From Bacteroidota bacterium (GTDB lineage: Bacteria > Bacteroidota > Ignavibacteria > Kapaibacteriales > UBA2268), in assembly GCA_009777815.1 (NCBI GenBank), contig WRLB01000001.1, forward strand, positions 1-62,739: a stretch of 62,739 nucleotides of DNA, in the 5' to 3' direction. The notes under the pieces were generated by a model. It was not told the origin of the DNA and did no database searches. It saw only the letters and a program-made list of their open reading frames with translations. This document shows, piece after piece, positions 1 to 57,133 of this stretch; position 1 is the first letter of the stretch; each line of letters begins with the position of its first letter. The translations under genes were made by a program, and so were the position numbers.

Positions 1-101
1 TAGATATTACTTCATTAATTGCTGGTCGCTATCTTTTGGTTATGGAGGTAAATGGAGATGTTTTTGAGTTTCCATTCATACTAAATATTATCAAGGAATA
101 A
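1..101 (+). CDS. 3' end (partial, enters from upstream of the window) of a T9SS-sorted secreted protein, paralog of 2334..4907
   Basis: Frame is open from nt 3 to TAA at 99-101. It encodes ..DITSLIAGRYLLVMEVNGDVFEFPFILNIIKE, nucleotide-identical to 4807..4907. Confidence 0.6.
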   Translation, partial: DITSLIAGRYLLVMEVNGDVFEFPFILNIIKE

Positions 102-122
102 AGCGTTTGTATAAAAAAAACG

Positions 123-130
123 TATTTTTG
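123..130 (+). promoter_or_regulatory. Bacteroidota-type -7 box TATTTTTG upstream of 196..1095
   Basis: Exact match to TAnnTTTG. It lies inside the 130-bp junction that is duplicated at 4807..4936. Confidence 0.4.
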
Positions 131-195
131 CAAAAATAACAGTTAAAGATTTATAAATTTATTCCGATAATTAAATAAATATAATATAAAAAAAT

Positions 196-1095
196 ATGAT
201 TCAAAATATAATGAAAACATTATTAATAGCGGGATTGATGATATTAGCCGCAACAAAAATATCTGCACAGCAGGTAATTAATTTCTATGCTTTAGAAGAG
301 CCATATCATATTCTGACTAAAGCAGATGTAGATGCTATTTTAGAAGCCGAATGGGACGGTGGCGAATTTGTAGCTGAAATTAGCCCTGATATAACGGTAA
401 TTGGCGAAAGTGCGTTTTTGGCTTATGATTATTTCCCGTATGCCAATCCTATTAATCTATACTTATTAGAAGCAAATGCCCCTAATGTAGAAATTATTGG
501 TACGTATGCTTTTGCGGGTAGCAATATAAATAAATTTTACTTTCCTGAAGTAATGTCTATTGATACTGCAGCTTTTATAGACTGTAACGGTTTAATTGTT
601 ATAGACCTGCCAAAAGCAACTAAAATAGGTGAGTCAGCTTTTAGATGGTGCTATGGTTTATCTACCGCTAAATTTGGATTAGGTTTCTCTGAACCAACTC
701 AAGTTAGTTTTAATTATGCCGTATTTACTGAAGGACTTACAAATGTGATAGACTTGATATTAAGCCAATACACTATCCCAATGCCCGATATAGAGGCAAA
801 AACTTGGCAGTATTTTTTTAAGAATGACTACGATGAATATATTTATAAATGGCGAAGCATTACGATGTATATAGGAATAGAAGAAAAAACAAGTAACTAC
901 ATCTATTATTTGGGCAATAATAGGTATTTATTAGAAAACATAGAACAAGCAGAGTTATTTGATTTGGCAGGAATACAAAATAAAAAGTTTAGCAATGAAA
1001 AAATAGTAGACTTAAATGAATTAAAAACAGGAATTTATTTCCTGCAGTATTTTTATGGAGGAAAAATACAAACTGAAAAAATAATTAAATATTAA
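196..1095 (+). CDS. Secreted BspA-type leucine-rich-repeat surface protein with T9SS C-terminal sorting domain
   Basis: 299-aa ORF with signal peptide MKTLLIAGLMILAATKISAQ. Repeated xIGxxAF units (VIGESAF, IIGTYAF, SIDTAAF, KIGESAF). C-terminus ..GIYFLQYFYGGKIQTEKIIKY is T9SS-CTD-like. Confidence 0.75.
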   Translation: MIQNIMKTLLIAGLMILAATKISAQQVINFYALEEPYHILTKADVDAILEAEWDGGEFVAEISPDITVIGESAFLAYDYFPYANPINLYLLEANAPNVEIIGTYAFAGSNINKFYFPEVMSIDTAAFIDCNGLIVIDLPKATKIGESAFRWCYGLSTAKFGLGFSEPTQVSFNYAVFTEGLTNVIDLILSQYTIPMPDIEAKTWQYFFKNDYDEYIYKWRSITMYIGIEEKTSNYIYYLGNNRYLLENIEQAELFDLAGIQNKKFSNEKIVDLNELKTGIYFLQYFYGGKIQTEKIIKY

Positions 1096-1184
1096 TGATA
1101 TTTTTATTTGTAAAAACAGATTTGGAAATTAGAATAAAAAAAGTTATTTTTGTTTTTAATAATTGACATTAACATAAAAAATAT

Positions 1185-2306
1185 ATGAAAAAATTAGTAA
1201 AAGTATTAGTAATAGCGGGCTTGATGATATTACCCGCAACAAAAATATCTGCACAAATTTATCACGAAGAGTGCAAAGAGGATCTTCGTGAATTTATGAG
1301 ACAAGGCACGAACTACGAAAAGTTAGGTTTGTCCGAAGCCGATACAAATTCTTGGATAACATCTGAAGATTGGGTGCCAAAAGTAAAAGGTGTATCTTGG
1401 TATGAAAATTGGCTTGAGCCAGAGGACCCAGATTTACGAATATACGAAATTCATTGGGGTAATCTTGATTTGGAAGGCAAGATAAAATTTTATACTCCAA
1501 TTTTAATGGATATGTATTGCAATAATAACAAATTAACAGAAATAGATGTTAGTAGCAATATACATTTGGACCTCTTACATTGTTATTATAATAATCTAAC
1601 AAAATTAGATGTTAGAAATCAAGTCCACTTATCATATCTGTCTTGTTCTTATAACAATTTAACTGAATTATTAGTAAATAAGACAGGTCCTTCTATAGGT
1701 TGTTCCTTCAATAAATTAAAACTTTCTACCCTCCCTGTTTTTAGTTTTGGATGCACATTTATTTATTCGCCGCAAGATACTATTTATGGTGGTATCAAGG
1801 AATATTTAGATACAGTAGATCTTAGTAGCGAATACAAAATTGACACAGATTATTGGGGCACTCATTTTACAATTTACAAGTGGTTTGACATAACTGATGG
1901 CGAAGAAAAAGAAGTTGAACAACCACAAAATGATAGTGGTGTATTCTATTTTGCAAAACAACACGCAGGAAAAAAAATGCGATGCAAAATGTTTAATGAA
2001 GTATTTTCATACTCATTTTTAGTAGATTTCAATCTCAATAAAGATACATTTTGGTTAGTTTATGAAACAGATATATTAGTTGGAATACAAGATAATTATG
2101 ATGCACAGCAACTTTACGAGTTAGAAAATAACGTATATTTGTTAAAAAATGCGATGCAAAATGTTAAATTATTTAATATGTCTGGTCAGAAAGTTTTAGA
2201 ATGTAAAGATGAAGTATTAGATTTAACGCCACTGCCGATAGGCGTATATATTTTGCAATACATAGAAAATAAACAATTAAAAAATATTAAATTAATTAGA
2301 AAGTAA
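1185..2306 (+). CDS. Secreted leucine-rich-repeat protein with T9SS C-terminal sorting domain
   Basis: 373-aa ORF with signal peptide VLVIAGLMILPATKISAQ. About 22-residue LRRs (NNNKLTEIDVSSNIHLDLLHCYYNNLTKLDVRNQVHLSYLSCSYNNLTEL). C-terminus GVYILQYIENKQLKNIKLIRK. TATTTTTG box at 1145-1152. Confidence 0.75.
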   Translation: MKKLVKVLVIAGLMILPATKISAQIYHEECKEDLREFMRQGTNYEKLGLSEADTNSWITSEDWVPKVKGVSWYENWLEPEDPDLRIYEIHWGNLDLEGKIKFYTPILMDMYCNNNKLTEIDVSSNIHLDLLHCYYNNLTKLDVRNQVHLSYLSCSYNNLTELLVNKTGPSIGCSFNKLKLSTLPVFSFGCTFIYSPQDTIYGGIKEYLDTVDLSSEYKIDTDYWGTHFTIYKWFDITDGEEKEVEQPQNDSGVFYFAKQHAGKKMRCKMFNEVFSYSFLVDFNLNKDTFWLVYETDILVGIQDNYDAQQLYELENNVYLLKNAMQNVKLFNMSGQKVLECKDEVLDLTPLPIGVYILQYIENKQLKNIKLIRK

Positions 2307-2333
2307 AATTTTATAATATAAAGATAAATTAAA

Positions 2334-4907
2334 ATGAATAGAAAATCGTTAATTTCATTGTTGCAACTTATAGGTTGCAAAATTGTATTAGTTGTAGTAG
2401 TAATATGTGGTTCTACAACAATAAAAGCGTTTGTAGTAACATCTTTTCCAGAATCTGATTTCTTGGTAATAGACCATACTACATACCAACGTGTTATGCA
2501 ATATCCTCCTGCAGTAAATATTTCAATAGATAGCACAATTATTGGCTATTATTACGAAGGTGGAAATACTTATAAATTAACTGACACAAGCGAATTTATG
2601 ACTGTTATTCTTTGGAATGTAGCACATAAAATTGATGCTTCGAAGGATTTCGTTTTCAGTTGTAAAGTATACTTTGGAAGTGGAAGGAAAAAGAACAATA
2701 AACTACCTCCCAAAACACCTAATGTTGCAGATGGGATTTGTATAATTTTTTCTGACAAAAAAAATATAGATTCAAACACAATTGGTGGCAAGCAAGCTAA
2801 TATTGGTTATGTTGGGATTGATTCTTCTATAGCAGTAGAATTAGACACTGAACGTGACCCGCCACAAAATGAGGGCTTCGAATGGGATGCCTCTAATATA
2901 TCTTGCCACCATATCAGTTATATAAGAGGGAATTCTATGGCGGCTTTAGATGGTATTGCATCACCTATGCAGAATAATTGGGGCAGTGTGGCTACTGGCC
3001 AATGGTATTGCTGTAATGTTGTTTGGCGGCAACATACAACAGGAGGATATGTGCTTGAAACATACCTTGAAGAAAAACAAAGTGGACAAATGCTTTTGAG
3101 ACATAGTAAGCATTTTAGTTCTTTGTCTGATTTTATTGATGGGTTATCAGTGGACTCTAACTGTCAAGCATTAATAAATTTTGGTGTTTCTTCATCCACA
3201 TGTATGAATCCTAATAAACATCAGATTGAGTTCTTGGAACTTCAAACAGGCAACATTGTTTTTGGTGGCGACAGCACACGAGTTCGTATACTATTTGATA
3301 ACTGTGGCTTTACAGGAACAGGATATTCCAACCAAATAAACGCTCATTGCGGCAATATCACTACCGCTTATGATTTTGACGTGGACACATTAATTGTCAA
3401 TTGTTCAGGATTTAGAATTGTTTGTTTAACCGAAGAACGTTATTCTGATGACTGGTATAATTTTGCTTATTTTAATTTGCACAATTTTAATAATCCTGAA
3501 TTTTGCTATATGAAAAATGGTGAGTGTATTCCATTTTACGCTGCGGAAGGCGACACAATCAACCTATATCCTTATATAGCAAACAATCCATCTGACAAAT
3601 ACATAGATACATTTTATATTCGTATGGTTGCTATGGGAGATACTGTATATTTTGGAATAAGGTATTACAACCATTCTATCCTTAAAAATTATTTTTCTGC
3701 CGCTACGAATTTAAAAGATAATATGGAAATAAATGATGACACATTAAACCTTACGCTTGTTCCCGACTCATTGGAGCAATCGATAAAACTTCCGTTGCTT
3801 GATAGTTGCGAGTATGTTATTAGTGGCATAGATAGTAGTATGTTTACGGCGGCTGGCGTTCCTAAAATAGTAGGTTTGCCCGATAGTGCGGTTTTGAGTT
3901 TTCAGTTTTTAGATACCTGTGGCATCAGCACATCATTAGAAATAAGTTTGGATTGCCCTTGTATAGATCCACTTCATATAGCAATAAAAACACCAGAGTG
4001 TGATGATTGTGGCTATGTTGTTTTCTTGCCTACTATAAATTTTAGTCAATCATTGCCAGACCATATAGACGATATTGATACTGCTTATTATAATTGCCTG
4101 AACCCGTTTAGTTCTAAATATAATATAATTAATACGCAAGTAAATATATTAGAAAATAATGATAATTTAGAGATTGAAGACATTTCTGACAGAATATGTA
4201 TAAAGTTTGAATGTCCTCCTTTAGTGTGGCTTCCGACAGGAGAACCCTATGAAATTGCTACTTATAGTATTCGATTGGAAGTATGCTTAACAATAGATGC
4301 AGAGCCAGTAAAAGAGTGCTGTATGAATACAAAATTTACTTTTTCGTGTTATAATTTATTAAAAGAAGGTGGCGTTGTAAATCCTGATGGTTGCGACAAA
4401 ACGGTTGCAGTTTATTATGAATTATATGATATTCCGCCTGTGCCGATGCCACTACATATAGCAATCTACGATAAATTTGGCTACAAGAAAAAAGATGTAA
4501 TGAGCGAAGTTCCAACAAAATTATCAGATACATTATATGCTGATGTTCGGTTATTGCCACCTGATGATTATTATATAGCTATCCTTATGGGCAGTCAATT
4601 TGATGTAGTTCCATTTACGATAGAAGGTATAATAAAATCAGCGGCGGTAGTTCCAAATCCGACATCGGGCATTGCGAGTGTAGATTATGAATTAAATTGT
4701 TTGCCGTCAGAGCCGATGCGAGTAACTATAAATGATATAATAACGGGGAATGAATTGATAGAATTGCATAATGGTTTTGTTCAAACATTATCAGATTCAA
4801 TTCCGATAGATATTACTTCATTAATTGCTGGTCGCTATCTTTTGGTTATGGAGGTAAATGGAGATGTTTTTGAGTTTCCATTCATACTAAATATTATCAA
4901 GGAATAA
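2334..4907 (+). CDS. Large secreted L-type (legume) lectin-like domain protein with T9SS C-terminal sorting domain
   Basis: 857 aa with hydrophobic N-terminus. Lectin-like signature ADGICIIF..ANIGYVGIDSSIAVELDTERD..CHHISY. Cys-rich middle. C-terminus ..GRYLLVMEVNGDVFEFPFILNIIKE. Only 27 nt after the preceding gene and no promoter box, so probably co-transcribed. Confidence 0.7.
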   Translation: MNRKSLISLLQLIGCKIVLVVVVICGSTTIKAFVVTSFPESDFLVIDHTTYQRVMQYPPAVNISIDSTIIGYYYEGGNTYKLTDTSEFMTVILWNVAHKIDASKDFVFSCKVYFGSGRKKNNKLPPKTPNVADGICIIFSDKKNIDSNTIGGKQANIGYVGIDSSIAVELDTERDPPQNEGFEWDASNISCHHISYIRGNSMAALDGIASPMQNNWGSVATGQWYCCNVVWRQHTTGGYVLETYLEEKQSGQMLLRHSKHFSSLSDFIDGLSVDSNCQALINFGVSSSTCMNPNKHQIEFLELQTGNIVFGGDSTRVRILFDNCGFTGTGYSNQINAHCGNITTAYDFDVDTLIVNCSGFRIVCLTEERYSDDWYNFAYFNLHNFNNPEFCYMKNGECIPFYAAEGDTINLYPYIANNPSDKYIDTFYIRMVAMGDTVYFGIRYYNHSILKNYFSAATNLKDNMEINDDTLNLTLVPDSLEQSIKLPLLDSCEYVISGIDSSMFTAAGVPKIVGLPDSAVLSFQFLDTCGISTSLEISLDCPCIDPLHIAIKTPECDDCGYVVFLPTINFSQSLPDHIDDIDTAYYNCLNPFSSKYNIINTQVNILENNDNLEIEDISDRICIKFECPPLVWLPTGEPYEIATYSIRLEVCLTIDAEPVKECCMNTKFTFSCYNLLKEGGVVNPDGCDKTVAVYYELYDIPPVPMPLHIAIYDKFGYKKKDVMSEVPTKLSDTLYADVRLLPPDDYYIAILMGSQFDVVPFTIEGIIKSAAVVPNPTSGIASVDYELNCLPSEPMRVTINDIITGNELIELHNGFVQTLSDSIPIDITSLIAGRYLLVMEVNGDVFEFPFILNIIKE

Positions 4908-4928
4908 AGCGTTTATACAAAAAAAACG

Positions 4929-4936
4929 TATTTTTG
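4929..4936 (+). promoter_or_regulatory. -7 box TATTTTTG upstream of 4965..7430
   Basis: Exact TAnnTTTG, 29 nt before the ATG. Part of the duplicated junction (copy of 123-130). Confidence 0.4.
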
Positions 4937-4964
4937 TAAATTATATTTATCATAGGAAACGAAA

Positions 4965-7430
4965 ATGTATAGATTTTTAACCTCTAAAAGTATGCTGATA
5001 TGTTTTTTGGCTACTTTAATTATTCTTAAATCAGCAAGTATTTCTGCGAATGAAAGTATTATTTTAACTGACCCTACGGGCGGTAAATTTCGCGGAATTG
5101 TTGATACTACTCTCAATGAATTTAATTATATTGAGGGCAAAGTTAATGTGTATTCGCAAGACGAATATATTCCACCTATCGGCATTAAAGAGCCAAATGT
5201 GTATTTCCCAAACAAAAATTTAGATAAATTGTTGGCAAGTGTAAATCAAACAAATTATCTAAGACCTGGAGAATATTTTGCTCTAAAAGTAAATCTAATG
5301 TCTGGCTCTATGGACTATTATAGAGTAGATTTTAAATTAGATGCAAAGTGCCAAGAAGCAATGAATATTGCACCTGTGTGGATGCGAAATGATTTGCTAA
5401 TAAAGTTCCGCGAACTTAATTTAGCAAAAGTAGGAAATGAAGCACTTTATGCTCAACTAATATTGGATGCTGCTAAAGACGATATTAAAATTGTTGATGA
5501 AGTTGCTTTTTTAGTGGCACATATTCCTGTTGAAACGCTATCAAATAGTGCGTTTATCAATGGTGATATGAATCGGCTTATTGCTGATGTTAAGCATATT
5601 TATACGATTGCGGATTCGTTAAAATATGTTGAAATTGTAGAACACGGCAATTATGCCAGCGGGGACTATTACACTACCACCCGATACAAGCATAAAACAA
5701 GCAAAAGTGCCACTCCAATATGGACCGAAATACCATCAGAAATATATTATTGGTATGTAGTTCATCCGCAAATATATCAAGAAACTATCCAATATACTGA
5801 CAACCCAAGCAATACTATACAAAGGACTTGGGGATATTCGTATAGGGATTTTTATTGGTCTAATCCTGACCCTGCTCACGATTATAAACCTGTAAATCAA
5901 AAAACAACAGCAGGTGAAGTTGTATCCATTCCTCGCTTGGGTGAGTTAATGCAATCTCCTGAAGTGCTATTTGATAGAGATTATAATTTGCTTAATTTTA
6001 ATAGACCATTTAATGAGGCAAATAATACTGCTTTAAATGTTTTAGGAAATTGGTGTTCAAGGGCGGTGCCGGGAGACCCGTCAAGCAATGATTTTAGACC
6101 AATAGCACCGAATCAAGTGTTAACTCATCATAGAGGTCGCTGTGGTGAAGATACGCAATTATTAGTTGCTGCTGCAAGAACTTGTTTAATACCTATAATT
6201 ACTCGTATTACACATTGTGAAGACCACGTTTTCGGTGCTGTATATGATGCTGATAGATGGCAACATTTTGAATTTTTTAGAGGTGGTTTAGTCCCTACAA
6301 ATAGTAACGGCACAAGTGGATGGGGCTGGACACATTTAAATGCTAATAGCACCTATGAAGATATGGCTCCCGATTATTGGATAATATCTACTGTAAATGG
6401 TATGCGTCCTGATGGCTATTTTTTAAATAACACAGAAGGTTATACGAAAACTTGTGAAATTGTATTTACTGTAAAAGATAAAGATGGAAACCCTGTAGCA
6501 GGTGCCCGTGTTAATTTACACGGATTGCCTCACGCTTTTGGTTCTGATTTTAATCCTACTTATAGTTTTTCAAGAGATGAATATACAGATAGAAATGGGA
6601 TTGCAAGAATGTTAGTAGGTGATAATAAATATTATTTATATAAAATATACCATACTGGTTTTGTTGGCGGACAATATCCCCAACCAGAAAACACGTATAA
6701 CGTAGCAGTAGGTGGCGTAACAGGTGGACAACTTTCTGGACCAAGGTCGCAATCAGGTATGGTGTATGAACATAATATTGCTATAACTAACTATCAGATA
6801 CCCGCACACAGTATTACAAACGTTAATGACATACCAGCAACAAAATATGCTATGGAAATAAATATGAACATCAGCGATATTCTTGTTGCAAAATCTAATA
6901 ACAGAACGTTTCATTACTGGTCGCCCGATAGCACAGGACATTTAACATATTTTGTCGTTAATCAAACCAACTTTGACAAACTTCAAGCAGGACAGCCATT
7001 CGAAGCATATTCAAAATTTGATTTCAAAGGAAACGGGAAAATGATAATTCCAATCCCTGAAACAGAAAATGATTGGTTTGTTGTAGGAAGTAATAAAAGT
7101 TCAACATTGCATTCACAATTTCTTAATTTTGAAGCATCATTGTTGGTAGCACCTGAACCTACTTATAGTTATTTAAGTATTGAGGAAGATTATATTATTG
7201 AAAACTTTATAGTTTCACCTAATCCTTTTGCTGATTTTTGTAAAATTGAGTTGCCTATGGGAACCGAATCTATAGAAATAACAGATGAATCAGGTGCAAT
7301 AGTATTATTCGTAAATGCTAATGATTTAAGAGAGTTTGATTGGTATCCAACCACAGGCAATGGCGTGTATTTCGTTAGAATAAAACTTAATAGCAAGTTC
7401 TATTTACAAAAAATTATTTTTAATAAGTAA
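4965..7430 (+). CDS. Secreted transglutaminase-like (Cys-His-Asp core) protein with T9SS C-terminal sorting domain
   Basis: 821 aa with signal peptide. Core HHRGRCGEDTQLLVAAARTC ... CEDHVFGAVYDAD. C-terminus GVYFVRIKLNSKFYLQKIIFNK. Confidence 0.75.
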   Translation: MYRFLTSKSMLICFLATLIILKSASISANESIILTDPTGGKFRGIVDTTLNEFNYIEGKVNVYSQDEYIPPIGIKEPNVYFPNKNLDKLLASVNQTNYLRPGEYFALKVNLMSGSMDYYRVDFKLDAKCQEAMNIAPVWMRNDLLIKFRELNLAKVGNEALYAQLILDAAKDDIKIVDEVAFLVAHIPVETLSNSAFINGDMNRLIADVKHIYTIADSLKYVEIVEHGNYASGDYYTTTRYKHKTSKSATPIWTEIPSEIYYWYVVHPQIYQETIQYTDNPSNTIQRTWGYSYRDFYWSNPDPAHDYKPVNQKTTAGEVVSIPRLGELMQSPEVLFDRDYNLLNFNRPFNEANNTALNVLGNWCSRAVPGDPSSNDFRPIAPNQVLTHHRGRCGEDTQLLVAAARTCLIPIITRITHCEDHVFGAVYDADRWQHFEFFRGGLVPTNSNGTSGWGWTHLNANSTYEDMAPDYWIISTVNGMRPDGYFLNNTEGYTKTCEIVFTVKDKDGNPVAGARVNLHGLPHAFGSDFNPTYSFSRDEYTDRNGIARMLVGDNKYYLYKIYHTGFVGGQYPQPENTYNVAVGGVTGGQLSGPRSQSGMVYEHNIAITNYQIPAHSITNVNDIPATKYAMEINMNISDILVAKSNNRTFHYWSPDSTGHLTYFVVNQTNFDKLQAGQPFEAYSKFDFKGNGKMIIPIPETENDWFVVGSNKSSTLHSQFLNFEASLLVAPEPTYSYLSIEEDYIIENFIVSPNPFADFCKIELPMGTESIEITDESGAIVLFVNANDLREFDWYPTTGNGVYFVRIKLNSKFYLQKIIFNK

Positions 7431-8123: not shown

Positions 8124-8180
8124 CAGTTTTCTTATAAATTTATACGCAAAAATACGATTTTTATAAAAATTTCATATTCG

Positions 8181-8340
8181 TTATGCTGAACTTGTTTCAG
8201 CATCTCCATAAAAAAAGTAATTATGCAGCAAGGGGGCAAGCCCCCTTGTTAAAATAACGATTATTTAACACGGGGGGCTTGCCCCCGTGATGGATAAAGA
8301 GATTCCGAAACAAGTTCGGAATGACATTTTAGATGTCACC
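8181..8340. repeat. Composite palindromic element: F1 left arm, two GC-rich F2 hairpins, F1 right arm plus F3 tail
   Basis: GCTGAACTTGTTTCAGC 8185-8201. CAAGGGGGCAAGCCCCCTTGTTAA 8229-8252. TTAACACGGGGGGCTTGCCCCCGTG 8265-8289. GATTCCGAAACAAGTTCGGAATGACATTTTAGATGTCACC 8301-8340. Confidence 0.8.
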
Positions 8341-8929
8341 CTAATTTAATTTGTGGCTTGTGCATTTTTACTTTTTGTTGAGTTGCAGCGGCTAATTCTC
8401 TTGCTATACCTAAATGACTATTGCAATCTGCTTTATTAGGAGTTAATGATACTTCCAATATAAAGTCATCAAGTCCTAAATACTCTATTGCACTCATACC
8501 AACGGGAGCATTTTCTGGCAGAACCCAAATGCCCGAATGTTCTAATCCCAAATTTAATTCAGATTGGCTGCAAATCATTCCTTCGGAATAATAATCTCTT
8601 ATTTTTCGTTTTTCTAATTTAAATCCCGCACTTGGCACTACAGCACCAACTACACCTACTATAATTTTTTGTTCAGCATCTACATTTGGCGCACCGCATA
8701 TAATAGATAGTTCTTTTTCGCCGATAGAAACTTTGCATAGCGAGAGTTTGTCGGCATTTGGATGTTTTTCTTTTGTTATAACGTAACCTACATAGAAGCC
8801 ATCGTATATAGTTTTTTGGTCTATATATTTTTCTACTTCTATGCCAAGCATAGTAAGTGTATCAGATAATTCTTTCAGATTGAAATCTAAATCTACATAT
8901 TTTTTTAGCCATTTACAAGATATAAGCAT
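8336..8929 (-). CDS. pheT: Phenylalanine--tRNA ligase beta subunit, N-terminal fragment only (B1 + tRNA-binding domain); probable truncated gene/pseudogene
   Basis: 197 aa. MLISCKWLKKYVDLDFNLKELSDTLTMLGIEVE.., KHPNADKLSLCKVSIG.., LEVSLTPNKADCNSHLGIARELAA are PheT N-terminal hallmarks. Full PheT is about 800 aa. The ORF stops exactly at the edge of the repeat cluster. Confidence 0.6.
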   Translation of the reverse strand: MLISCKWLKKYVDLDFNLKELSDTLTMLGIEVEKYIDQKTIYDGFYVGYVITKEKHPNADKLSLCKVSIGEKELSIICGAPNVDAEQKIIVGVVGAVVPSAGFKLEKRKIRDYYSEGMICSQSELNLGLEHSGIWVLPENAPVGMSAIEYLGLDDFILEVSLTPNKADCNSHLGIARELAAATQQKVKMHKPQIKLG

Positions 8930-10339: not shown

Positions 10340-10388
10340 ATGTTCAATAAGTTGACAGAATAAAAAAAAGCAATTATGAAAAACGAAG

Positions 10389-10474
10389 ATGAATCCCAGT
10401 GTTAAAGTAGATGCTGAAACAAGTTCAGCAGGACAGCATTTTGTTAATTGTCATTCCGAACTTGTTTCGGAATC
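10389..10474. repeat. Palindromic element cluster (degenerate F2 half, two F1 hairpins)
   Basis: GCTGAAACAAGTTCAGC 10413-10429. GTCATTCCGAACTTGTTTCGGAATC 10450-10474. Confidence 0.75.
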
Positions 10475-11007
10475 TCATTATTAAAAAATGGTATTTTATT
10501 ATGAACAAATAATAGTAATATAACTCCACAAGTAACACAACTATCCGCTATATTAAATACAGGAAAATGTGTGTATTGTAAAAACCAAAAGTTAATATCA
10601 GGAATATCTACTAATATAAAATCTACCACTCCCCCATAAAATAAGGGTGCAGTTCCGTAAATAACACCATAAAAACATCTATCTATTCCGTTTCCAAATG
10701 CTCCTGCAATTATCAACGTAATAGCAATACCTGCTATAAATGGCACCTCTTTTCGTATTTTATATAAATAATATACTAACAAACCACCTAAAATAATAGA
10801 CATTAACGAAGCAAAAATTTTTGCCCATCCTAATTCAATACCGAACGCTATTCCTGTATTTTCTATGTAAGTTAATTGGATTATATTGCTAATTACAGGC
10901 AAAACTTCGCCGTAATCGAATAGTTGTTTTATAGTTATTTTCGTGACCTGATCTATAATTATTAAAATTGTAGCAATAAGATAATATTTAGTTATATTGT
11001 TTTTCAT
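10444..11007 (-). CDS. lspA: Lipoprotein signal peptidase (signal peptidase II)
   Basis: 187 aa, multi-TM. Motifs NTGIAFG, GNGIDR, VVDFI, FNIADS. The last 10 codons (EIPKQVRNDN) are encoded by the F1 repeat. Confidence 0.9.
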   Translation of the reverse strand: MKNNITKYYLIATILIIIDQVTKITIKQLFDYGEVLPVISNIIQLTYIENTGIAFGIELGWAKIFASLMSIILGGLLVYYLYKIRKEVPFIAGIAITLIIAGAFGNGIDRCFYGVIYGTAPLFYGGVVDFILVDIPDINFWFLQYTHFPVFNIADSCVTCGVILLLFVHNKIPFFNNEIPKQVRNDN

Positions 11008-14088: not shown

Positions 14089-14150
14089 GGATTTACTGAA
14101 TATTTTTTTATACAAAAATACTATTTTTGCAGAAATATATAATAAATATT

Positions 14151-14699
14151 ATGGAAAATTATATAAAAAAATTAAAAGAAATAATATTAAAATATCCCGA
14201 TTTATATCAAAAAAAAATGTATAAAAAAGGTGACCATTTGCTTGCAGAAGACAATATCGCAAATAATCTTTATTATATTAAAAAAGGTATTGCTAAAGTT
14301 GTTCATTATTGCGAAGGCAAAATGAAAGAAGCAACAATTCTTTTCTTTTCAGAAGATGAATTTATGTCTCCCTATAAAAGTTTTGTAGACAACGATGCTT
14401 CAAAATTTAGCATAGAAGTTATTGAAAATGCTGATATGCTTGTAATTAGCAAAACAAATTGGCAAAAATTAGAACAATTAGAACCCGAAGTTACACATTT
14501 ACTTAAAGATGCAGCACTGAATATAGTATATCAGTTCGCCTATTATATCGTTGATTATATTCGTTTTGATGCCAATAAACGATTAGAATCTATATTAGAA
14601 AAGAAGCCATCTTTAAGACGACTATCCGATGAAGAATTATCTAAACACTTAGGCGTAACGCGAACAACTATTAATAGAGCAAAAAAGAAAAATGTATAA
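14151..14699 (+). CDS. Crp/Fnr-family transcriptional regulator (cNMP-binding-like domain + C-terminal HTH)
   Basis: Beta-barrel-like N-terminal half; C-terminal LSDEELSKHLGVTRTTINRAKKK HTH. The ATG at 14151 is preferred because the TTG at 14127 sits inside the TATTTTTG box at 14122-14129. Confidence 0.65.
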   Translation: MENYIKKLKEIILKYPDLYQKKMYKKGDHLLAEDNIANNLYYIKKGIAKVVHYCEGKMKEATILFFSEDEFMSPYKSFVDNDASKFSIEVIENADMLVISKTNWQKLEQLEPEVTHLLKDAALNIVYQFAYYIVDYIRFDANKRLESILEKKPSLRRLSDEELSKHLGVTRTTINRAKKKNV

Positions 14700-14777
14700 T
14701 TTTATACAAAAAATGTTGAAATTTGACTTGCGTGCTTCGTTTTTTCTGTTTATTTTTGTAATTATTTTTTTACAAAA

Positions 14778-17307: not shown

Positions 17308-17370
17308 ATATTTTATTAAAAATAATTTTTATGCAAAAATACATAAAAATTGTAAAAAAAACATATTTAG

Positions 17371-17394
17371 CACGAGGGCTTGCCCCCGTGTTAA
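17371..17394. repeat. F2 GC-rich hairpin element
   Basis: CACGAGGGCTTGCCCCCGTGTTAA. Confidence 0.75.
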
Positions 17395-17939: not shown

Positions 17940-17958
17940 ATTTTATCCTTATTTATTT

Positions 17959-36617: not shown

Positions 36618-36625
36618 GAGGACCA

Positions 36626-37258: not shown

Positions 37259-37267
37259 GAGGCAACA

Positions 37268-43562: not shown

Positions 43563-45956
43563 ATGTCCGAAAATACAAATCCTACAAGTATTGAAAATAA
43601 TGCTGAAAACAATATTCAAAATACTAACGTAGAACTTAATGTAACAGGAAATGAAATGGATGCCGTAAGTAAGAAAAAATCTATTTCACAAATGTTTCCA
43701 AATGTTGCAGAATTTATGGAACAAAACTTCAAACAATTTGAAATGGATGACAAAGAGTTTGAAGAATTAGCATTCAAAGATGTTCCAGAAATTAAAGAAG
43801 ATGAGTTAATTAAAGGTAAAATCGTCTCTATAACGAAAGACGAAGTGCTTGTTGATATTAATTTCAAATCATATGGAATTATACCGAAAGGCGAGTTAGT
43901 TAATTCAGAAGCATACTTCGAAGGCGAAGAAATTGATGTCTATATCGAAAAAGTAGAAGACACCGATGGAAAAATAATTTTATCACGCAGGCGTGCTGAT
44001 TTTATGCGTATATGGAAAGATATACTTGCACTTCATAAAAATCAAGAAGTGATTAAAGTTAAAATTATTCGCAAGATTAAAGGCGGAATGATGGTAGAAT
44101 TATTTGGTATAGAAGCATTTTTACCAGGTTCGCAAATAGATATTCGTCCTATCAAAGATTTTGATTCTTGGGTCGGACAGAATATTGAAGTAAAAGTAGT
44201 AAAGGTAAATAATCCTTATGAAAATGTTATCGTTTCGCATAAGATATTATTAGAAGAACTGCTTGCCGACCAGCGAATGGAAATAATGAACAGATTAGAA
44301 AAAGGTTTAGTGCTTGAAGGAGTAGTTAAAGCAATTTCTGAATTCGGTGTATTTGTTGATTTAGGTGGCATAGATGGTCTTGTCCATATTACTGACTTAA
44401 GTTGGGGTAGAGTGCAGAACCCTCGCGAAGTAGTAGAAGAAGATACAGCAGTGCGAGTAGTTGTGCTTGATTTTGATAAGGTAAAACAACGTATTGCTTT
44501 AGGTATGAAGCAACTTACACCGCATCCTTGGGATGAAATAGGTGATAAGTATGTTGAAGGAACTAAAGTAGGCGGCAAGGTAGTATCACTTACCGAATAT
44601 GGTGCTTTCATAGAAATAGAAAAAGGCATAGAAGGATTAATCCACCTTAGAGAAATGTCTTGGACACAGCACGTTAAATATGCTCACCAAGTATTGCAAA
44701 TAGGACAATATGTAGAAGCACTAGTTTTAAGTATTGATAAGTCAGAGAAAAAACTATCGCTTGGTATGAAACAATTAACACCTGACCCTTGGGAAGATAT
44801 AATTAAAAAATTCCCTATTGGTTCTAAACAACAAGGTGTTATTCGGCACTTATCTACATTTGGTGCTTTTGTTGAACTTGAACAAGGAGTAGAAGGACTA
44901 ATTTATGTAGCGGATTTGAGTTGGACTAAAAGATTTATCCATCCCGCAGAAATATTTAGAAAAGGTGATGATATAGATGTTGTAATCCTAAATGTAGATT
45001 CAGAACAAAGAAGAATATCATTAGGACATAGACAACTTAAAGAAAATCCTTGGGAGAAATTAGAAGAAGTTTATCCAGTGGGTATGGAAACTGAAGCAAG
45101 AATAGAACGTATTATAGAAAAAGGAGTTATTATTGGCTTGCCTGATGACGTAGATGGATTTGTTCCAAGTTCGCAACTTTCATTTGCACCTATAAAACAC
45201 GTTAGAAATTACTTTGAGCCAGGAGATATTTTGCCTTTAAAAGTTGTAGAATTTGATAAAGAAACTAAAAAAATTGTTCTATCTGTGGTTGAGTGTTTGA
45301 GGGGTAAAGACCAAGCAATTATAGATAAATATAATAAGCAACATCCTGTTCCTCATGCTGATAGATACTCTTCGGGTACTGAACTATCTGAACATATTAA
45401 GACGTATCAACCAGGCGACAAAGAAGTAGATGAAATAATAAAACAAGAATTTTCGTATCCTGAACTGCCTGAAGATATTGTTTCTGCTACTATACACGAT
45501 ATAACAGTAGAAAAAAATGCCGAAAAACTTGGTATGACTATAGAGGAATATAAAGAATATTTAGAAATAGAAAAAGCAAAAGAATCTGCAAAAATAGTTT
45601 CTGTTGAGGAGGTTGCTCCTGTCGTAGAAGAAGTTACTCCTGCTGTTGAGGAGGTTGCTCCTGCTGTTGAGGAGGTTGCTCCTGCTGTTGAAGAAGTTGC
45701 TCCCGCTGTAGAAGAAGTTGCTCCTGCCGTGGAAGAGGTTGCTCCTGCCGTAGAGGAAGTTGCTCCTGCCGTGGAAGAAGTTGCTCCTGATGTTGAGGAA
45801 GTTGCTCCTGATGTTGAAGAGGTTGCTGAAACAGAAGAAGTTTCTGATGAAGATGATGAATATAATGAAGATATAGTTTTTGATGAAGACGATGAATATG
45901 ATGATGATGATGAAGTTCCCGATAAAGAAAAGGAAGAACCAGCATCATTGTTTTAA
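43563..45956 (+). CDS. rpsA: 30S ribosomal protein S1 with a long repetitive acidic C-terminal extension
   Basis: 797 aa. Six S1 domains (e.g. GKIVSITKDEVLVDI, GVVKAISEFGVFVDLGGIDGLVHITD, GKVVSLTEYGAFIEIEKGIEGLIH). Tail of VEEVAPA heptads plus a D/E-rich end. Confidence 0.93.
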   Translation: MSENTNPTSIENNAENNIQNTNVELNVTGNEMDAVSKKKSISQMFPNVAEFMEQNFKQFEMDDKEFEELAFKDVPEIKEDELIKGKIVSITKDEVLVDINFKSYGIIPKGELVNSEAYFEGEEIDVYIEKVEDTDGKIILSRRRADFMRIWKDILALHKNQEVIKVKIIRKIKGGMMVELFGIEAFLPGSQIDIRPIKDFDSWVGQNIEVKVVKVNNPYENVIVSHKILLEELLADQRMEIMNRLEKGLVLEGVVKAISEFGVFVDLGGIDGLVHITDLSWGRVQNPREVVEEDTAVRVVVLDFDKVKQRIALGMKQLTPHPWDEIGDKYVEGTKVGGKVVSLTEYGAFIEIEKGIEGLIHLREMSWTQHVKYAHQVLQIGQYVEALVLSIDKSEKKLSLGMKQLTPDPWEDIIKKFPIGSKQQGVIRHLSTFGAFVELEQGVEGLIYVADLSWTKRFIHPAEIFRKGDDIDVVILNVDSEQRRISLGHRQLKENPWEKLEEVYPVGMETEARIERIIEKGVIIGLPDDVDGFVPSSQLSFAPIKHVRNYFEPGDILPLKVVEFDKETKKIVLSVVECLRGKDQAIIDKYNKQHPVPHADRYSSGTELSEHIKTYQPGDKEVDEIIKQEFSYPELPEDIVSATIHDITVEKNAEKLGMTIEEYKEYLEIEKAKESAKIVSVEEVAPVVEEVTPAVEEVAPAVEEVAPAVEEVAPAVEEVAPAVEEVAPAVEEVAPAVEEVAPDVEEVAPDVEEVAETEEVSDEDDEYNEDIVFDEDDEYDDDDEVPDKEKEEPASLF
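45603..45833 (+). repeat. In-frame 21-bp tandem repeat (about 11 units) encoding VEEVAPA heptads in rpsA
   Basis: GTTGAGGAGGTTGCTCCTGCT and synonymous variants (GAA/GAG, GTA/GTT/GTG, CCT/CCC). Confidence 0.9.
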
Positions 45957-50329: not shown

Positions 50330-50362
50330 GCTAATATAATGTCAAATATTATGCCGAATATT

Positions 50363-50420
50363 GCTGAACTTGTTTCGGAATCTCCACAAAACAAAACACG
50401 GGGGCAAGCCCCCGTGTTAA
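50363..50420. repeat. F1 arm + F2 hairpin
   Basis: GCTGAACTTGTTTCGGAATCTCC 50363-50385. AACACGGGGGCAAGCCCCCGTGTTAA 50395-50420. Confidence 0.8.
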
Positions 50421-50437
50421 AATGTCTTGCACCGATT

Positions 50438-50638
50438 TTACGGCTGTGGTGTTATTATCAACCTGCCTTTTTTAACGTTAACTTTTTTGATGCGTTGCTT
50501 CTTGTTGGCGACATCAAATATTGCGGTTAATGATGTATTATCACCAATGTTAAAAGTATATGGATTTGCCGTTGATACTAATCCACCGCCGTCATCCCAA
50601 CCTACAAATTTGTAACCCCCATTTGGAGTTGCGTCCAC
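50438..50638 (-). pseudogene. 3' fragment of a surface protein with a Listeria-Bacteroides (Flg_new/InlB-B type) repeat, 5' part lost at the IS remnant
   Basis: ..ATPNGGYKFVGWDDGGGLVSTANPYTFNIGDNTSLTAIF matches the GYxFxGW...F repeat. No plausible start. It abuts the IS1-like sequence. Confidence 0.5.
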
Positions 50639-50639
50639 G

Positions 50640-51124
50640 GATACACTGCAAGATAATCGGGTGCCGGAAGTAATAGAGATGGACGAGATTTACACTCGTG
50701 TAAAAAAAGGGGCTTGCGAGTTCAGGTATGGGTTGCTTATTCTCGGCGGCGAAGTAAAGTTGTTGCATATACGATAGGTGCCAGCAGCAATTGCGCCATA
50801 GAACTTTACAATCTGACTAAGCGTGCAGTAGGCAATATTAGTTGTATTTACACTGATGGCAATTCAAGTTATCGGGAGCGATTTACCGATATTGGCATAT
50901 CTGATTTGCATAAAGTAGCACCGGGCAAGTCACAGACGCATCTGATAGAGAGTGTCAATAGCAGTATCCGAGACAATTTAGCTAGATTTAACAGACGTAG
51001 CAAGCGTTATAGTAAGACATTAGAAATGTTAGATAATACGCTATTATTATTTTTTCATTACAAAAAATACAAACGTCACATAAAGCGAACACTGCCAACG
51101 TTACTGAAATTGTTAAATTTATAA
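50640..51124 (+). mobile_element. IS1-family transposase remnant (N-terminally truncated, frame-disrupted)
   Basis: Frame 0 reads ..VPEVIEMDEIYTRVKKG. After the A7 run at 50702-50708 the homology continues in the -1 frame: VWVAYSRRRSKVVAYTIG..IYTDGNSSY..KSQTHLIESVNSSIRDNLARFNRRSKRYSKTLEML (InsB-like DDE region). Locally higher GC. Confidence 0.7.
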
Positions 51125-53317: not shown

Positions 53318-53359
53318 AACTCTTATTTTATGCGAAGGTATGCCGTTTATTTATAAAAA

Positions 53360-53416
53360 AACACGGGGATGAATCCCCGTGTTAATTGTATGTAATTCCG
53401 AACTTGTTTCGGCATC
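53360..53416. repeat. F2 hairpin + F1 arm
   Basis: AACACGGGGATGAATCCCCGTGTTAA 53360-53385. GTAATTCCGAACTTGTTTCGGCATC 53392-53416. Confidence 0.8.
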
Positions 53417-53444
53417 TTACTGATTTATATTACAAAAAAAACCT

Positions 53445-54252: not shown

Positions 54253-54718
54253 CAATACCATTATATTCTTTTGGAGCAACATAATCTTTTCTTAACGGAA
54301 AACCTTCCCAATCATCAGGACACAAAATCCTATCTAAATTAAAATGCCCTTCAAATTTTATTCCGAACATATCAAATGCTTCTCGTTCGTGCCAATTTGC
54401 TGTTTTCCATACTCTTTCTATGGTAGGAACGATAGGTTTTTTTCTATCTAATTTAACTTTTAGCACTAATTTATGTTTTAACGGAATTGAATATAGATGA
54501 TATACTACGCCAATTGCATCTTTATAATCCATACCTGTAAGCATTGAAAAGTAATCAAATTGCATTTCGCTATTATCTCGCAAAAACATTGCAATCTCTT
54601 TTATGCTGTTGGGATTAACATTAATAAATGAATCAGAACCTGCTTCAAGTTCCACAAGTTCTATTACTTGGTCACCAAAATTTTCTTTTAATTTACTATA
54701 AATATCTTTTGTTTGCAT
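54230..54718 (-). CDS. nuoC: NADH-quinone oxidoreductase subunit C (30-kDa subunit)
   Basis: 162 aa. ANWHEREAFDMFGIKFEGH.NL.RIL, DDWEGFPLRKDY. Confidence 0.88.
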   Translation of the reverse strand: MQTKDIYSKLKENFGDQVIELVELEAGSDSFINVNPNSIKEIAMFLRDNSEMQFDYFSMLTGMDYKDAIGVVYHLYSIPLKHKLVLKVKLDRKKPIVPTIERVWKTANWHEREAFDMFGIKFEGHFNLDRILCPDDWEGFPLRKDYVAPKEYNGIDATPNKV

Positions 54719-54992
54719 ATATTTTATGTTTAATTTAACTATATTTTCATAAAAATAATAAAAATATTTTTAATTTATATAATGTCTTTTAATTATTTAC
54801 AATAAGATTGCATACATTATACAAGAAAAATACAAGAAAAATACAAGTATAATTAAAATATATTGTAAATGTTTAACAGACTTTATATAAGGTAATTTAT
54901 TAGACATTTTTATATAAATATAAATTGAATAAAATTCTAATTTTTTTATATAAAAGCCAAAGGCAACTCTAAAATGTTATTTTTATATTCTC

Positions 54993-55436
54993 CTACTCCT
55001 TCATCAACATCTTACTGTTTGTTTTTTCAAATTCATTTAAGAACAGAGAGATTTCATAATTATCTAGTTCATCACTTAAATATTTATCTGTGGTTTCTTT
55101 AAATGAATCAGAATCTTCATAAAAATTAATAAGTTCGCCAAAACGCCGTTCCACAATAATTTTACCTAAACGTCCGTCTTTTTTAACCTTTATCCATTTT
55201 TCACGTATCTCTACAATTTCATCATATATTGGCTTTATTACAGTAAACCTATCAAGAAACAAACCGTATTTAATAGAGTTTTCGTATTCCATAAAATCAT
55301 TTATTATAATTTTAATCCCTTTATGTTGTTCCGTAACTATAAATCCATTTTTGTATAAATATTCTGAATTTTCTTCTTCTATGGTTAAATTTATTAATAA
55401 ATTTGATAAAAAGTTTATTATTACTTGGATGATCAT
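54993..55436 (-). CDS. Hypothetical protein (weak WG-repeat-like pattern)
   Basis: 147 aa. Starts 5 nt after the ettA stop, using the GGAG inside the ettA end as Shine-Dalgarno. Ends with the same LMKE-stop as ettA. Confidence 0.5.
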   Translation of the reverse strand: MIIQVIINFLSNLLINLTIEEENSEYLYKNGFIVTEQHKGIKIIINDFMEYENSIKYGLFLDRFTVIKPIYDEIVEIREKWIKVKKDGRLGKIIVERRFGELINFYEDSDSFKETTDKYLSDELDNYEISLFLNEFEKTNSKMLMKE

Positions 55437-55441
55437 TCTTA

Positions 55442-57133
55442 CTACTCCTTCATCAACTTTTTATATCTTACTCTTGTTGGTTCTATATTGCCTAATCTTT
55501 GTTTGCGATTTTCAATATATTCTGAATAACCGCCTTCAAAATAATAAACCTGCGAATCTCCTTCAAAAGCAAGAATATGTGTGGCAACTCTGTCCAAAAA
55601 CCACCTATCGTGTGAAATAATTACAGCACATCCCGCAAATCCTTCTAAACCTTCCTCCAAAGCACGCAAAGTATTTACATCAATATCATTAGTAGGTTCG
55701 TCCAACAAAAGAACATTTGCTTCTTTCTTCAGTGTTAAAGCAAGATGAAGACGATTCCTTTCGCCACCCGATAAGATACCACACTTCTTTTGTTGGTCGG
55801 CACCTGCAAAATTAAAACGAGCAACATAAGCCCGTGAATTAAACGAACGACCTTGAATAGTAATCTCTTCGTGTCCTTCTGAAACAACTTCCCATATAGT
55901 TTTATCGGGGTCAATTTCGGTATGCTGCTGATCTACATATCCAACAACAACGGTATCTCCTATCTTGAACTCGCCCGAATTAGGTGATTCAATTCCCATA
56001 ATCATTCGAAACAGCGTTGTTTTTCCCGCACCATTCGGACCAATAATACCTACAATTCCTGCTGGTGGTAGTTTGAAATTAAGTTTTTCAAAAAGCAATT
56101 TATCATCAAAAGATTTAGAAACATCAACAGAATCAATAACATTATTTCCTAACCGCGGACCATTAGGAATAAATATCTCTAATTTTTCTTCTTTTTCTTT
56201 AACATCTTCATTTAGCATATTTTCATAAGCAGAAAGACGTGCTTTTGCCTTGGCGTGCCTTGCTTTTGGAGACATTCTAACCCATTCCAGTTCTCGTTCT
56301 AATGTTTTTTGTCGTTTAGATTCTTGCTTACCTTCTTGCTCTAATCTTTTTGCTTTTTGCTCCAACCAAGAAGAATAATTGCCTTGATATGGAATACCTT
56401 CGCCTCTATCCAACTCTAAAATCCAACCCGCAACATTATCTAAAAAATATCTATCGTGTGTGATAGCAATAACAGTACCTTTATATTGCTGAAGATGTTG
56501 CTCTAACCAATCAACTGATTCGGCATCTAAATGGTTCGTTGGCTCATCCAATAAAAGAATATCGGGTTCAGTTAAAAGCAATCTACACAATGCAACTCTT
56601 CTTCTTTCGCCACCCGACAGGTTTTTAATCGGTGCATCAGCAGACGGACATCTTAACGCATCCATTGCTCGTTCAAGTTTATTATCAAGATTCCAAGCAT
56701 CTTTTGCTTCTAACAAATCGGTAAGTTTGCCTTGTCTTTCTATTAGTTTATTCATTTCATCGTCAGACATCGGCTCGGCAAATTTTGCACTTATATCGTC
56801 ATATTCTTTTAGTAAATCCACAATTTCTTGCATACCTTGTTGTATAGTTTCTTTAACTGTAAGGTTATCATCAAGTTCGGGTTCTTGTGCTAAATGACCG
56901 ATAGAATAGCCCGGCGAAAAAGTAACATCACCTGTATAAGATTTTTCTATTCCTGCAATAATTTTAAGTAGTGTAGATTTGCCTGAACCATTAAGCCCAA
57001 TGATACCAATTTTAGCACCATAATAGAAGGACAGATAGATATTTTTAAGCACTTGTTTATGTGGAGGAAATATTTTATTTATTCCGATAAGGGAAAAAAT
57101 TATTTTTTTATCATCTAAATTAGTTGTAGCCAT
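55442..57133 (-). CDS. ettA: Energy-dependent translational throttle protein EttA (ABC-F)
   Basis: 563 aa. Two ABC cassettes (GLNGSGKST, LSGGERRRVAL, LLLDEPTNHLD; GPNGAGKTT, LSGGERNRLHL, LLLDEPTNDID) with a charged linker. Confidence 0.93.
   Translation of the reverse strand: MATTNLDDKKIIFSLIGINKIFPPHKQVLKNIYLSFYYGAKIGIIGLNGSGKSTLLKIIAGIEKSYTGDVTFSPGYSIGHLAQEPELDDNLTVKETIQQGMQEIVDLLKEYDDISAKFAEPMSDDEMNKLIERQGKLTDLLEAKDAWNLDNKLERAMDALRCPSADAPIKNLSGGERRRVALCRLLLTEPDILLLDEPTNHLDAESVDWLEQHLQQYKGTVIAITHDRYFLDNVAGWILELDRGEGIPYQGNYSSWLEQKAKRLEQEGKQESKRQKTLERELEWVRMSPKARHAKAKARLSAYENMLNEDVKEKEEKLEIFIPNGPRLGNNVIDSVDVSKSFDDKLLFEKLNFKLPPAGIVGIIGPNGAGKTTLFRMIMGIESPNSGEFKIGDTVVVGYVDQQHTEIDPDKTIWEVVSEGHEEITIQGRSFNSRAYVARFNFAGADQQKKCGILSGGERNRLHLALTLKKEANVLLLDEPTNDIDVNTLRALEEGLEGFAGCAVIISHDRWFLDRVATHILAFEGDSQVYYFEGGYSEYIENRKQRLGNIEPTRVRYKKLMKE

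Follow-up and report, generated by a model that had tools for sequence, protein, structure and literature searches.

Accessory genes in the genome of an uncultured gut bacterium of the Bacteroidota are repeatedly bracketed by direct duplications of the sequence next to them. We analysed a 62,739-nt stretch of an A+T-rich contig (WRLB01000001.1, 31% G+C; hereafter the window), in which this arrangement occurs four times: around genes for type IX secretion system (T9SS) cargo (case i), around the adjoining genes DUF4160 and DUF2442, a reported toxin-antitoxin pair (case ii), around two restriction-modification (R-M) systems (case iii) and around an orphan open reading frame (ORF; case iv). The bracketing of accessory genes by duplicated sequence is real and non-random, with repeats of 16 to at least 134 nt and with G+C contents of 0.235-0.307 for the bracketed accessory genes and 0.33-0.40 for the flanking core genes. 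How small defence or addiction modules reach ordinary chromosomal positions without a mobility gene is an old open question; to our knowledge, long target duplications are the only known footprint of such insertions, and they have so far been documented for R-M systems. The window provides a compact set of examples from one uncultured lineage, in which one toxin-antitoxin family is found in three contexts with three duplicated targets. The aspartyl-tRNA synthetase gene aspS, one of the core genes concerned, encodes a protein with 62-73% identity to named Ignavibacteria/Kapabacteria-type metagenome proteins and 79-84% to other relatives, and near-identical contigs exist in ENA ERZ27257348, ENA ERZ27257302 and JGI metagenome 3300002469.

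In case (ii), the duplicated sequence is the 3' end of aspS, a Pfam-assigned gene on the reverse strand at 18411-20222. Its native end, comprising the last 11 codons and the stop together with 11 nt downstream (copy A, 18400-18446), recurs with 47/47 identities at 17393-17439 (copy C) and in part at 17958-17994 (copy B), all three on the reverse strand. Copy B agrees with copy A at 27/27 positions over 17958-17984 and with copy C over 37 nt at 97% (17958-17994 versus 17413-17449, 33 nt of it exact), and in a variant contig, L004, copy C extends to 61 nt. Between copies C and B lie, on the same strand, the genes for DUF4160 (17679-17939; PF13711, E = 4e-24 in a Pfam scan), described as a toxin-antitoxin effector, and for its partner in the reported pair, DUF2442 (17404-17676, 90 amino acids; PF10387, E = 7e-14). 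Between copies B and A lies an element on the forward strand (array A, 18037-18400) with a TAnnTTTG box, the Bacteroidota-type -7 promoter consensus, the 15-mer AATTAGTAACGTTTT at 18053-18067 and tandem units of 20/41 nt at 18129-18400. DUF2442 takes its final 11 codons and its stop from copy C, and its C-terminus in the window is thus QLKELGISLVK followed by the aspS stop. DUF2442 relatives, 76-80 amino acids long, finish 10-12 residues sooner, at ...APETLYEKS followed by IKM, VFL or VAVN, and the window protein reads on past this point as ...EKSVNVN-QLKELGISLVK. As all close aspS relatives terminate in QL(K/T/A)ELGI and a few further residues, the duplicated codons are native to aspS; the DUF2442 of the cassette has lost its own stop and runs in frame into the displaced aspS end. 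The aspS of relatives carries in-frame insertions, one of about 27 amino acids in P0008 and a DUF559-containing segment in P0010.

A second core gene end is duplicated in case (iv), where the 16-nt sequence CTACTCCTTCATCAAC forms the final five codons (VDEGV) and the stop both of ettA (55442-57133, reverse strand; copy at 55442-55457) and of an orphan ORF of 147 amino acids (ORF147, 54993-55436, reverse strand; copy at 54993-55008). ORF147 begins 5 nt past the ettA stop, and an AGGAG in the ettA end is situated at the position expected for a ribosome-binding site. By length alone the 16-mer is insignificant, because an unrelated inverted 16-mer is also present in the window; its register from the stop, rather than its length, makes it notable. 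When we searched the window for gene pairs with identical 3' ends, as a preliminary description of this DNA had proposed for the whole genome, a stop-aligned comparison of 1596 ORF pairs revealed only two that share a long run, DUF2442/aspS (36 nt) and ORF147/ettA (16 nt). Both are adjacent neighbours on the same strand, and the next best pair reaches 10 nt. The reuse of duplicated core codons and stop by the inserted gene, claimed in that description for cases (ii) and (iv), is borne out. The four cases rank at the top of the exact direct repeats spaced 200-6000 nt in the window, whereas the inverted-repeat control, which includes the unrelated 16-mer, is headed by repetitive extragenic palindrome (REP)-like elements and A+T-rich strings. 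For ORF147 itself, a word-based search found no homologues and a full phmmer search only weak WG-repeat matches.

The surroundings of case (iv) vary between strains. Contig L015 (1-2245, 5085-5134) departs wholly from the window beyond 57718, where it has a second nuoC-like gene, and is missing some 113 nt of the intergenic DNA that the window has at 54778-54890. Its sample, ERZ27257348, also holds L001, a near-identical copy of window positions 26.3-46.6 kb. These differences point to strain-level rearrangement near case (iv).

In case (iii), three copies of a head sequence on the forward strand frame two R-M cassettes upstream of rpsJ (36306-36617). Head copy 1 (32079-32203), which consists of a common core and a promoter-like part ending in TATTTTTGTAA, is followed by cassette 1 (32211-34449; a 104-amino-acid ORF, a C5 cytosine methylase and a 250-amino-acid ORF with a precomputed MwoI_N match), and head copy 2 (34523-34646) by cassette 2 (34657-36202; an N4/N6 methylase with a called start at 34657 and a BsaWI-like endonuclease), while head copy 3 (36196-36262) is reduced to the core and lies 44 nt upstream of rpsJ. 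Copies 1 and 2 are 90% identical over 125 nt (32079-32203 versus 34523-34646), copies 2 and 3 98.5% over 66 nt (34539-34604 versus 36197-36262), and copies 1 and 3 92.6% over 68 nt (32094-32161 versus 36196-36262). A promoter-like TAnnTTTG box is present in the duplicate, in keeping with the earlier claim that it carries the promoter. Scanning metagenomes with a 27-nt core of this head, we recovered one further locus, L014, from another strain. There, this head, flanked on its left as copy 1 is, precedes a third R-M system (a BsaWI-like endonuclease, then an N4/N6 methylase) that is, beyond family level, unrelated to either window cassette. All three R-M cassettes start directly after TATTTTTGT(A/G)A, at one and the same point just past the promoter box. 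The ribosomal protein genes at this locus are themselves fragmented: rpsJ-rplC-rplD-rplW (36306-38199) are followed by an RNase HII gene on the opposite strand, neither fusA nor tuf lies ahead of rpsJ, and in related contigs rpsQ is found behind DUF4160/DUF2442 (L009, 928-1203).

Case (i) is cut by the window edge. Its first copy (1-134, forward strand) contains the 3' end, 33 codons and the stop, of a gene upstream of the window, followed by an intergenic promoter box, and its second copy (4807-4940, forward strand) is 97.8% identical over 134 nt, 108 nt of them exact. The segment corresponds to the final 33 codons and the stop of the ORF at 2334-4907 plus 34 nt of intergenic sequence, and ends just beyond a TAnnTTTG box upstream of the ORF at 4965-7430. 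The bracketed genes (196-4907, forward strand) encode an LRR_5/T9SS cargo protein (196-1095), a protein with a T9SS tail (1185-2306) and a lectin-like T9SS cargo protein (2334-4907). As copy 1 begins at the first base of the window, its true length and its parent gene are out of view; the repeat is nevertheless real, and the three remaining repeat sets are found where the preliminary description had placed them as well as in independent assemblies. In contig L005, from the same sample as L001, other sequence stands upstream of the first T9SS cargo gene, diverging about 20 nt before its ATG.

The four cases could also be unrelated local events, with a paralogue tail or gene conversion in case (i), promoter duplication under selection in case (iii) and chance or slippage in case (iv). 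In the region of case (i), four T9SS cargo genes stand in a row, two of which (196-1095 and 1185-2306) have an 89-nt upstream and signal-peptide segment in common at 85% identity (182-269 versus 1170-1255); a separate tandem paralogue pair is found at 14127-15359, and unrelated 16-mers do exist in the window. On the other hand, the stop-register comparison puts cases (ii) and (iv) far beyond background, and the DUF4160/DUF2442 cassette recurs elsewhere with new bracketing repeats and an enrichment of such repeats in other genomes, as described below. We consider a set of unrelated events distinctly unlikely, although less so for case (i). Duplications made by metagenome assemblers at repeats are a still fainter prospect, which we regard as highly improbable. 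The window does start inside repeat (i), and other assemblies also break there, but the junctions of the other three cases recur in contigs that stem from separate samples and centres (JGI 3300002469; ENA ERZ27257302 and ERZ27257348), namely L003 and L004 for case (ii), L001 and L002 for case (iii), and L015-L017 for case (iv). As the same junctions occur in independent assemblies, cases (ii)-(iv) are not assembly artefacts.

The cassette of case (ii) provides further evidence. Metagenomes contain related DUF4160/DUF2442 pairs, with about 75% DNA identity, in two further settings: four contigs, each from its own sample (L009-L012), have the pair upstream of rpsQ, and contig L013 has it upstream of another gene. 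In both settings, the leader or promoter of the downstream gene is present on either side of the pair as an imperfect direct repeat of about 40-56 nt (331-370 versus 879-918 in L009; about 520-569 versus 1050-1102, about 85% identical, in L013). Under one scoring scheme, these repeats score 69 in the window, 51 in the rpsQ context and 55 in L013, while the highest score among 1500 randomly drawn pairs of window flanks with matching geometry is 49, short of 51. In a three-way alignment, the contexts have only about 490 nt in common, which begin at the ATG of DUF4160, reach to around codon 76 of DUF2442 and include neither a promoter nor a terminator. In L013, the duplicated segment starts within the end of DUF2442, where GAAAAAAGCGTATTTTTGTAA encodes EKSVFL and a stop, and terminates at AAAATATG, so that both ends of the duplication overlap with ends of the cassette (AAGYGTA and AAAATATG). 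The end of the cassette is fused in frame to host codons at aspS and to duplicated promoter sequence in L013. These findings support movement of one cassette family between three contexts, each with its own duplicated target.

To look beyond this lineage, we scanned GTDB with a DUF4160 alignment and obtained 80 loci from many phyla, in 76 of which DUF2442 is adjacent to DUF4160. Comparing 215 nt upstream with 260 nt downstream of the pair and counting direct repeats with a score of at least 40, we found bracketing repeats at 7 of 68 unrelated loci, compared to 4 among 390 controls, segments of equal length taken from these loci (Fisher p = 2.4e-4). The repeats reach 138 nt at 98% identity, and the inverted control peaks at 37. 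Bracketing repeats are enriched about tenfold around DUF4160/DUF2442 in unrelated genomes, and this first count across phyla suggests that such a footprint is common there. The repeats lie at -5 to -114 nt from the ATG and at +11 to +156 nt from the stop, and as these distances vary from locus to locus, the cassette has no fixed element ends. At one locus, L069 (2810-4306), the promoter of a hicB-like gene and its first 31-35 codons are present three times, with a DUF4160/DUF2442 pair and a hicBA pair lying between these copies; cases (ii) and (iii) show the same arrangement of three copies and two cassettes. DUF4160 homologues are also found on 37 plasmids from diverse genera. Toxin-antitoxin activity has been reported for a DUF4160/DUF2442 homologue from Dickeya (PMC8198452, as cited in PMC12065111), and structural analysis assigned DUF4160 a distinct fold without a confident structural homologue and classed it as a toxin effector (PMC12065111). 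We had considered whether DUF4160, with its motif HNPPHIHA-YY, might be a small self-mobilising HUH nuclease, an idea that seems hard to reconcile with this distinct fold and effector classification and was dropped.

Considering the four cases jointly, we favour, with little better than even confidence, a course of events in which cassettes enter with duplication of their target and are subsequently shaped by selection, RecA-driven stacking and addiction-based persistence. The mechanism of insertion is inferred, and we do not claim it to be common to all four cases. Cassettes would be joined illegitimately at staggered breaks, with subsequent fill-in, or replication would switch template from the target to the cassette and then back into the target at a point upstream of its exit, whereby the interval between the two switch points would become duplicated. 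Short homologies, in this A+T-rich genome the promoter box AAAAAAnnnTATTTTTG, which is close to consensus, and the start context AAAATATG, would guide the joins, and we propose that the junctions lie at gene boundaries because boundary motifs would supply such homologies. In both the case (i) repeat and the L013 duplication, one boundary falls on or beside a TAnnTTTG box, and the promoter regions of this genome, with two repeat families, are strikingly alike and could therefore act as dispersed short homologies. The surviving events would be those that keep the 3' end of the core gene or re-supply the promoter or leader of the downstream essential gene. Once in place, the flanking repeats would permit RecA-dependent amplification, stacking and cassette exchange, which could yield three copies around two cassettes, and the structures would persist mainly around addictive modules such as R-M and toxin-antitoxin systems, since, in this proposal, loss of the insert by deletion between the repeats would kill the cell. 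One may extend this idea and speculate that addictive modules spread across phyla by a general, recombinase-independent insertion that is anchored on boundary motifs (promoter box, start context or gene 3' end), duplicates the target and thereby leaves the host gene intact, and builds integron-like stacks of host copies, with the nuclease or toxin of the module possibly provoking the breaks; we give this broader version only a slim chance of being correct.

A different origin of the repeats would be homologous, Campbell-type integration, in which circles or transforming DNA that carry the local repeat together with a cassette recombine via RecA. The repeats would then be the substrate rather than the product of the insertion, and the architecture could spread between strains of a single population, with stacking and swapping, and would require no new illegitimate event. 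This would account for the heads of case (iii), which are 66-125 nt long and 90-98% identical, for the presence of three unrelated R-M systems behind one head and junction, and for the agreement of the L014 head with copy 1 in its left flank. The rpsJ hotspot is well explained in this way. The three-copy, two-cassette stacks in cases (ii) and (iii) and in L069 are equally compatible with it, metagenome contigs break at cassette boundaries, suggesting presence/absence variation within samples, and amplification through such repeats has been reported (PMC2853133). Homologous integration is, however, unable to make the first head-cassette-head arrangement at a new locus, and DUF4160/DUF2442 has three duplicated targets in one lineage. 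In addition, repeats of 16 nt, as in case (iv), are too short for efficient RecA recombination. We regard homologous integration as unlikely, but as the main competitor of the favoured reading.

The preliminary description had stated that no recombinase is encoded nearby, which holds for the ORFs scanned with a sole exception. Pfam and NCBIfam scans of the window ORFs, ten of which have no family match, yielded no integrase, resolvase or HUH enzyme, and the only mobility gene is a truncated IS1-family DDE transposase ORF (50714-51124; PF03400, E = 7e-10), located 3.9 kb from the nearest case and inside a patch of 39% G+C (50430-51124). No IntI or other recombinase domain was detected in the ORFs flanking 32.0-36.3 kb or 17.3-18.5 kb, and Rfam and tRNA scans of the window, which could have identified the repeats as RNA genes or tRNA-type att sites, returned zero matches. 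A site-specific integrase might nevertheless act in trans, in which case the repeats would correspond to attL and attR, with the element bringing a replacement target end, as in genomic islands and integron cassettes. In cases (ii) and (iv), the core gene has its 3' end restored and the displaced copy lies at the opposite end of the insert, which is the classical att pattern, and the three R-M cassettes have one common junction position. No integrase was found among the scanned ORFs of the window, which speaks against such an enzyme, but a stretch of 63 kb leaves room for a trans-acting one elsewhere. The targets, however, are unrelated and differ in kind (gene 3' end, promoter or leader, terminator), no common core att or junction motif was found among the repeats, whose sequences are unrelated between cases, and a search for attC-like palindromes at cassette ends gave only weak A+T-rich inverted matches. 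Furthermore, the cassette ends differ among GTDB loci, and the same cassette uses three unrelated targets. Since targets and repeat lengths vary and neither a common site nor an attC-like structure is apparent, site-specific recombination is disfavoured, and we consider it improbable. Of the cassette-capture mechanism that had been proposed in the preliminary description, either site-specific or templated by microhomology, the movement of one cassette family is supported by its discovery in two more contexts with their own duplications, whereas the site-specific option is not supported.

Several observations weigh against insertion with target duplication as the joint explanation. We recovered no empty site for any case: exact-copy look-ups of rpsJ, DUF4160, the LRR gene, ORF147 and ettA returned near-identical strains only, all with the same inserts. 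A contig scan with RNase G, with flanks to span cases (ii) and (iii), found nothing, and the metagenome scan for an empty case (iii) site with the 27-nt core led to L014, which is an alternative cassette and not an empty site. The aspS relatives P0002 and P0007 (83% identical) lack the cassette, but synteny with the window is lost as well, so that no site can be defined in them. With no occupied and empty versions to compare, 'target duplication' is deduced from structure alone. Case (i), truncated as it is, may represent a recent paralogue tail or gene conversion within the T9SS cargo family, as its structure is indistinguishable from a paralogue tail. A single simple insertion is inadequate for the locus of case (ii), because copy B carries the GTTAAT of the DUF2442 end and the array beside aspS keeps the phase of the sequence downstream of that gene; this locus records more than one event, and we reconstructed no single unambiguous order for copies A, B and C. 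For random illegitimate joining, one common joining nucleotide after the promoter box for three R-M cassettes is unexpected and fits homologous exchange or site preference better. The microhomologies lie in low-complexity, A+T-rich sequence. Finally, the thresholds of the GTDB comparison were set after the scores had been seen, and two of its seven repeats (L047 and L084) may be REP-like elements rather than target copies.

Gene order in relatives is also unusual at a larger scale. Contigs L007 and L008, whose aspS is 83% identical, have no neighbouring genes on either side in common with window positions 8-30 kb, and the neighbours in L008, a 433-amino-acid radical SAM protein gene and a 525-amino-acid ORF, are found at 46.7-49.7 kb of the window. 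For this level of divergence, such scrambling is unusual.

The pattern as such is not new in kind; the most useful new element is the evidence for the toxin-antitoxin cassette. 'Insertion with long target duplication' was described for R-M systems by Furuta, Abe and Kobayashi in 2010 (PMC2853133), following Nobusato et al. 2000 (Gene 259:99). In their study, R-M systems of all types are flanked by repeats of 46 to about 420 bp, the target sequence is single-copy, mobility genes are absent, and a Haemophilus influenzae repeat overlaps 15 bp of a gene's 3' end; insertion can fuse genes, the repeats permit amplification, and the mechanism was left unexplained, with double-strand breakage suggested. 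A later review gives this type of insertion for R-M systems only (PMC3874152). Furuta et al. looked for R and M homologues in an insert of less than 20 kb, direct repeats of more than 30 bp, a single repeat in an empty relative and no mobile element. In case (iii), the inserts are methylase and endonuclease-like pairs of 2.4 and 1.7 kb, in contrast to the 0.45-1 kb inserts of cases (ii) and (iv), which are not R-M systems. Repeats exceed 30 bp in cases (i) (134 nt), (ii) (47 nt) and (iii) (66-125 nt), and fall below it in case (iv) (16 nt), and the IS1 remnant is the only mobile element among the scanned window ORFs. Case (iii) agrees with this class in all the criteria assessed, the empty-site comparison excepted, and looks like a textbook example of it.

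The likeness to long target duplications is that the accessory units carry no mobility genes and are enclosed by long direct repeats that differ in length, to which the 3' end overlap and fusion may be added. The loci described here differ in that they also include a toxin-antitoxin pair and an orphan ORF, where R-M systems alone were known so far, in that one repeat has only 16 nt, and in that three tandem copies stack two cassettes. Integrons likewise harbour promoterless small cassettes, often toxin-antitoxin or R-M systems, head-to-tail at one site and variable between strains, but here we found neither IntI nor attC-like palindromes, the repeat is local host sequence rather than a cassette-borne site, and in case (iii) every cassette has its own copy of the promoter box. 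Integrase islands at the 3' ends of tRNA or protein genes also restore the target end and leave a displaced copy at the far end; in our cases, by contrast, there is no integrase in or beside the inserts, which span 0.45-2.4 kb and one to three genes, and targets and lengths are heterogeneous. Variable-length duplication, a templated insert, short junction homologies and the lack of a dedicated recombinase are shared with template switching of the microhomology-mediated break-induced replication (MMBIR) or fork stalling and template switching (FoSTeS) type and with homology-facilitated illegitimate recombination, which have been described mainly in eukaryotes or in experiments, while here such events are deduced only from junction sequences in A+T-rich DNA. 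If confirmed by comparison of occupied and empty sites, the phenomenon would widen from R-M systems to toxin-antitoxin modules, and sets of junctions could separate break-and-fill, template-switch and homologous-recombination models.

The genome contains further repeats. Two dispersed families resembling REPs or miniature inverted-repeat transposable elements, the GTCATTCCGAACTTGTTTCGGAATCT-type elements and the hairpin AACACGGGGGCTTGCCCCCGTGTTAA, occupy many intergenic regions in both orientations, for example at 8176-8346, 10375-10486, 17367-17397, 22402-22465, 23190-23256, 50354-50423, 53355-53426, 61141-61235 and 61439-61472. They also surround a PIN-domain toxin gene with a small upstream partner ORF (22529-23193), which lies between REP-like hairpins at 22435-22465 and 23190-23220 and between inverted copies of the other family at 22401-22424 and 23233-23256. 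We considered this pair as a fifth case and rejected it, as its flanks are mixed-orientation REP-like hairpins and not a core duplication. Within a coding region, the gene for an S1-domain protein (43563-45956) has an inner tandem repeat of 21 nt (7 codons) in about 11 copies at 45561-45882, and the homologue in L001 is 7 residues shorter (790 versus 797 amino acids).

The 15-mer AATTAGTAACGTTTT of array A occurs exactly three times, at 18053-18067, 25855-25869 and 38336-38350, each time a few nt downstream of a TAnnTTTG-like box. One of these copies directly abuts a tandem array with a 20-nt period and one lies about 60 nt upstream of such an array. Arrays of this period are found at 18129-18400, 25867-26061 and 61224-61425, the last without AATTAGTAACGTTTT; their units differ from array to array, but each has a palindrome of 9-14 nt. 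Together, the AATTAGTAACGTTTT sites and the arrays look like a family of promoter-leader-array elements.

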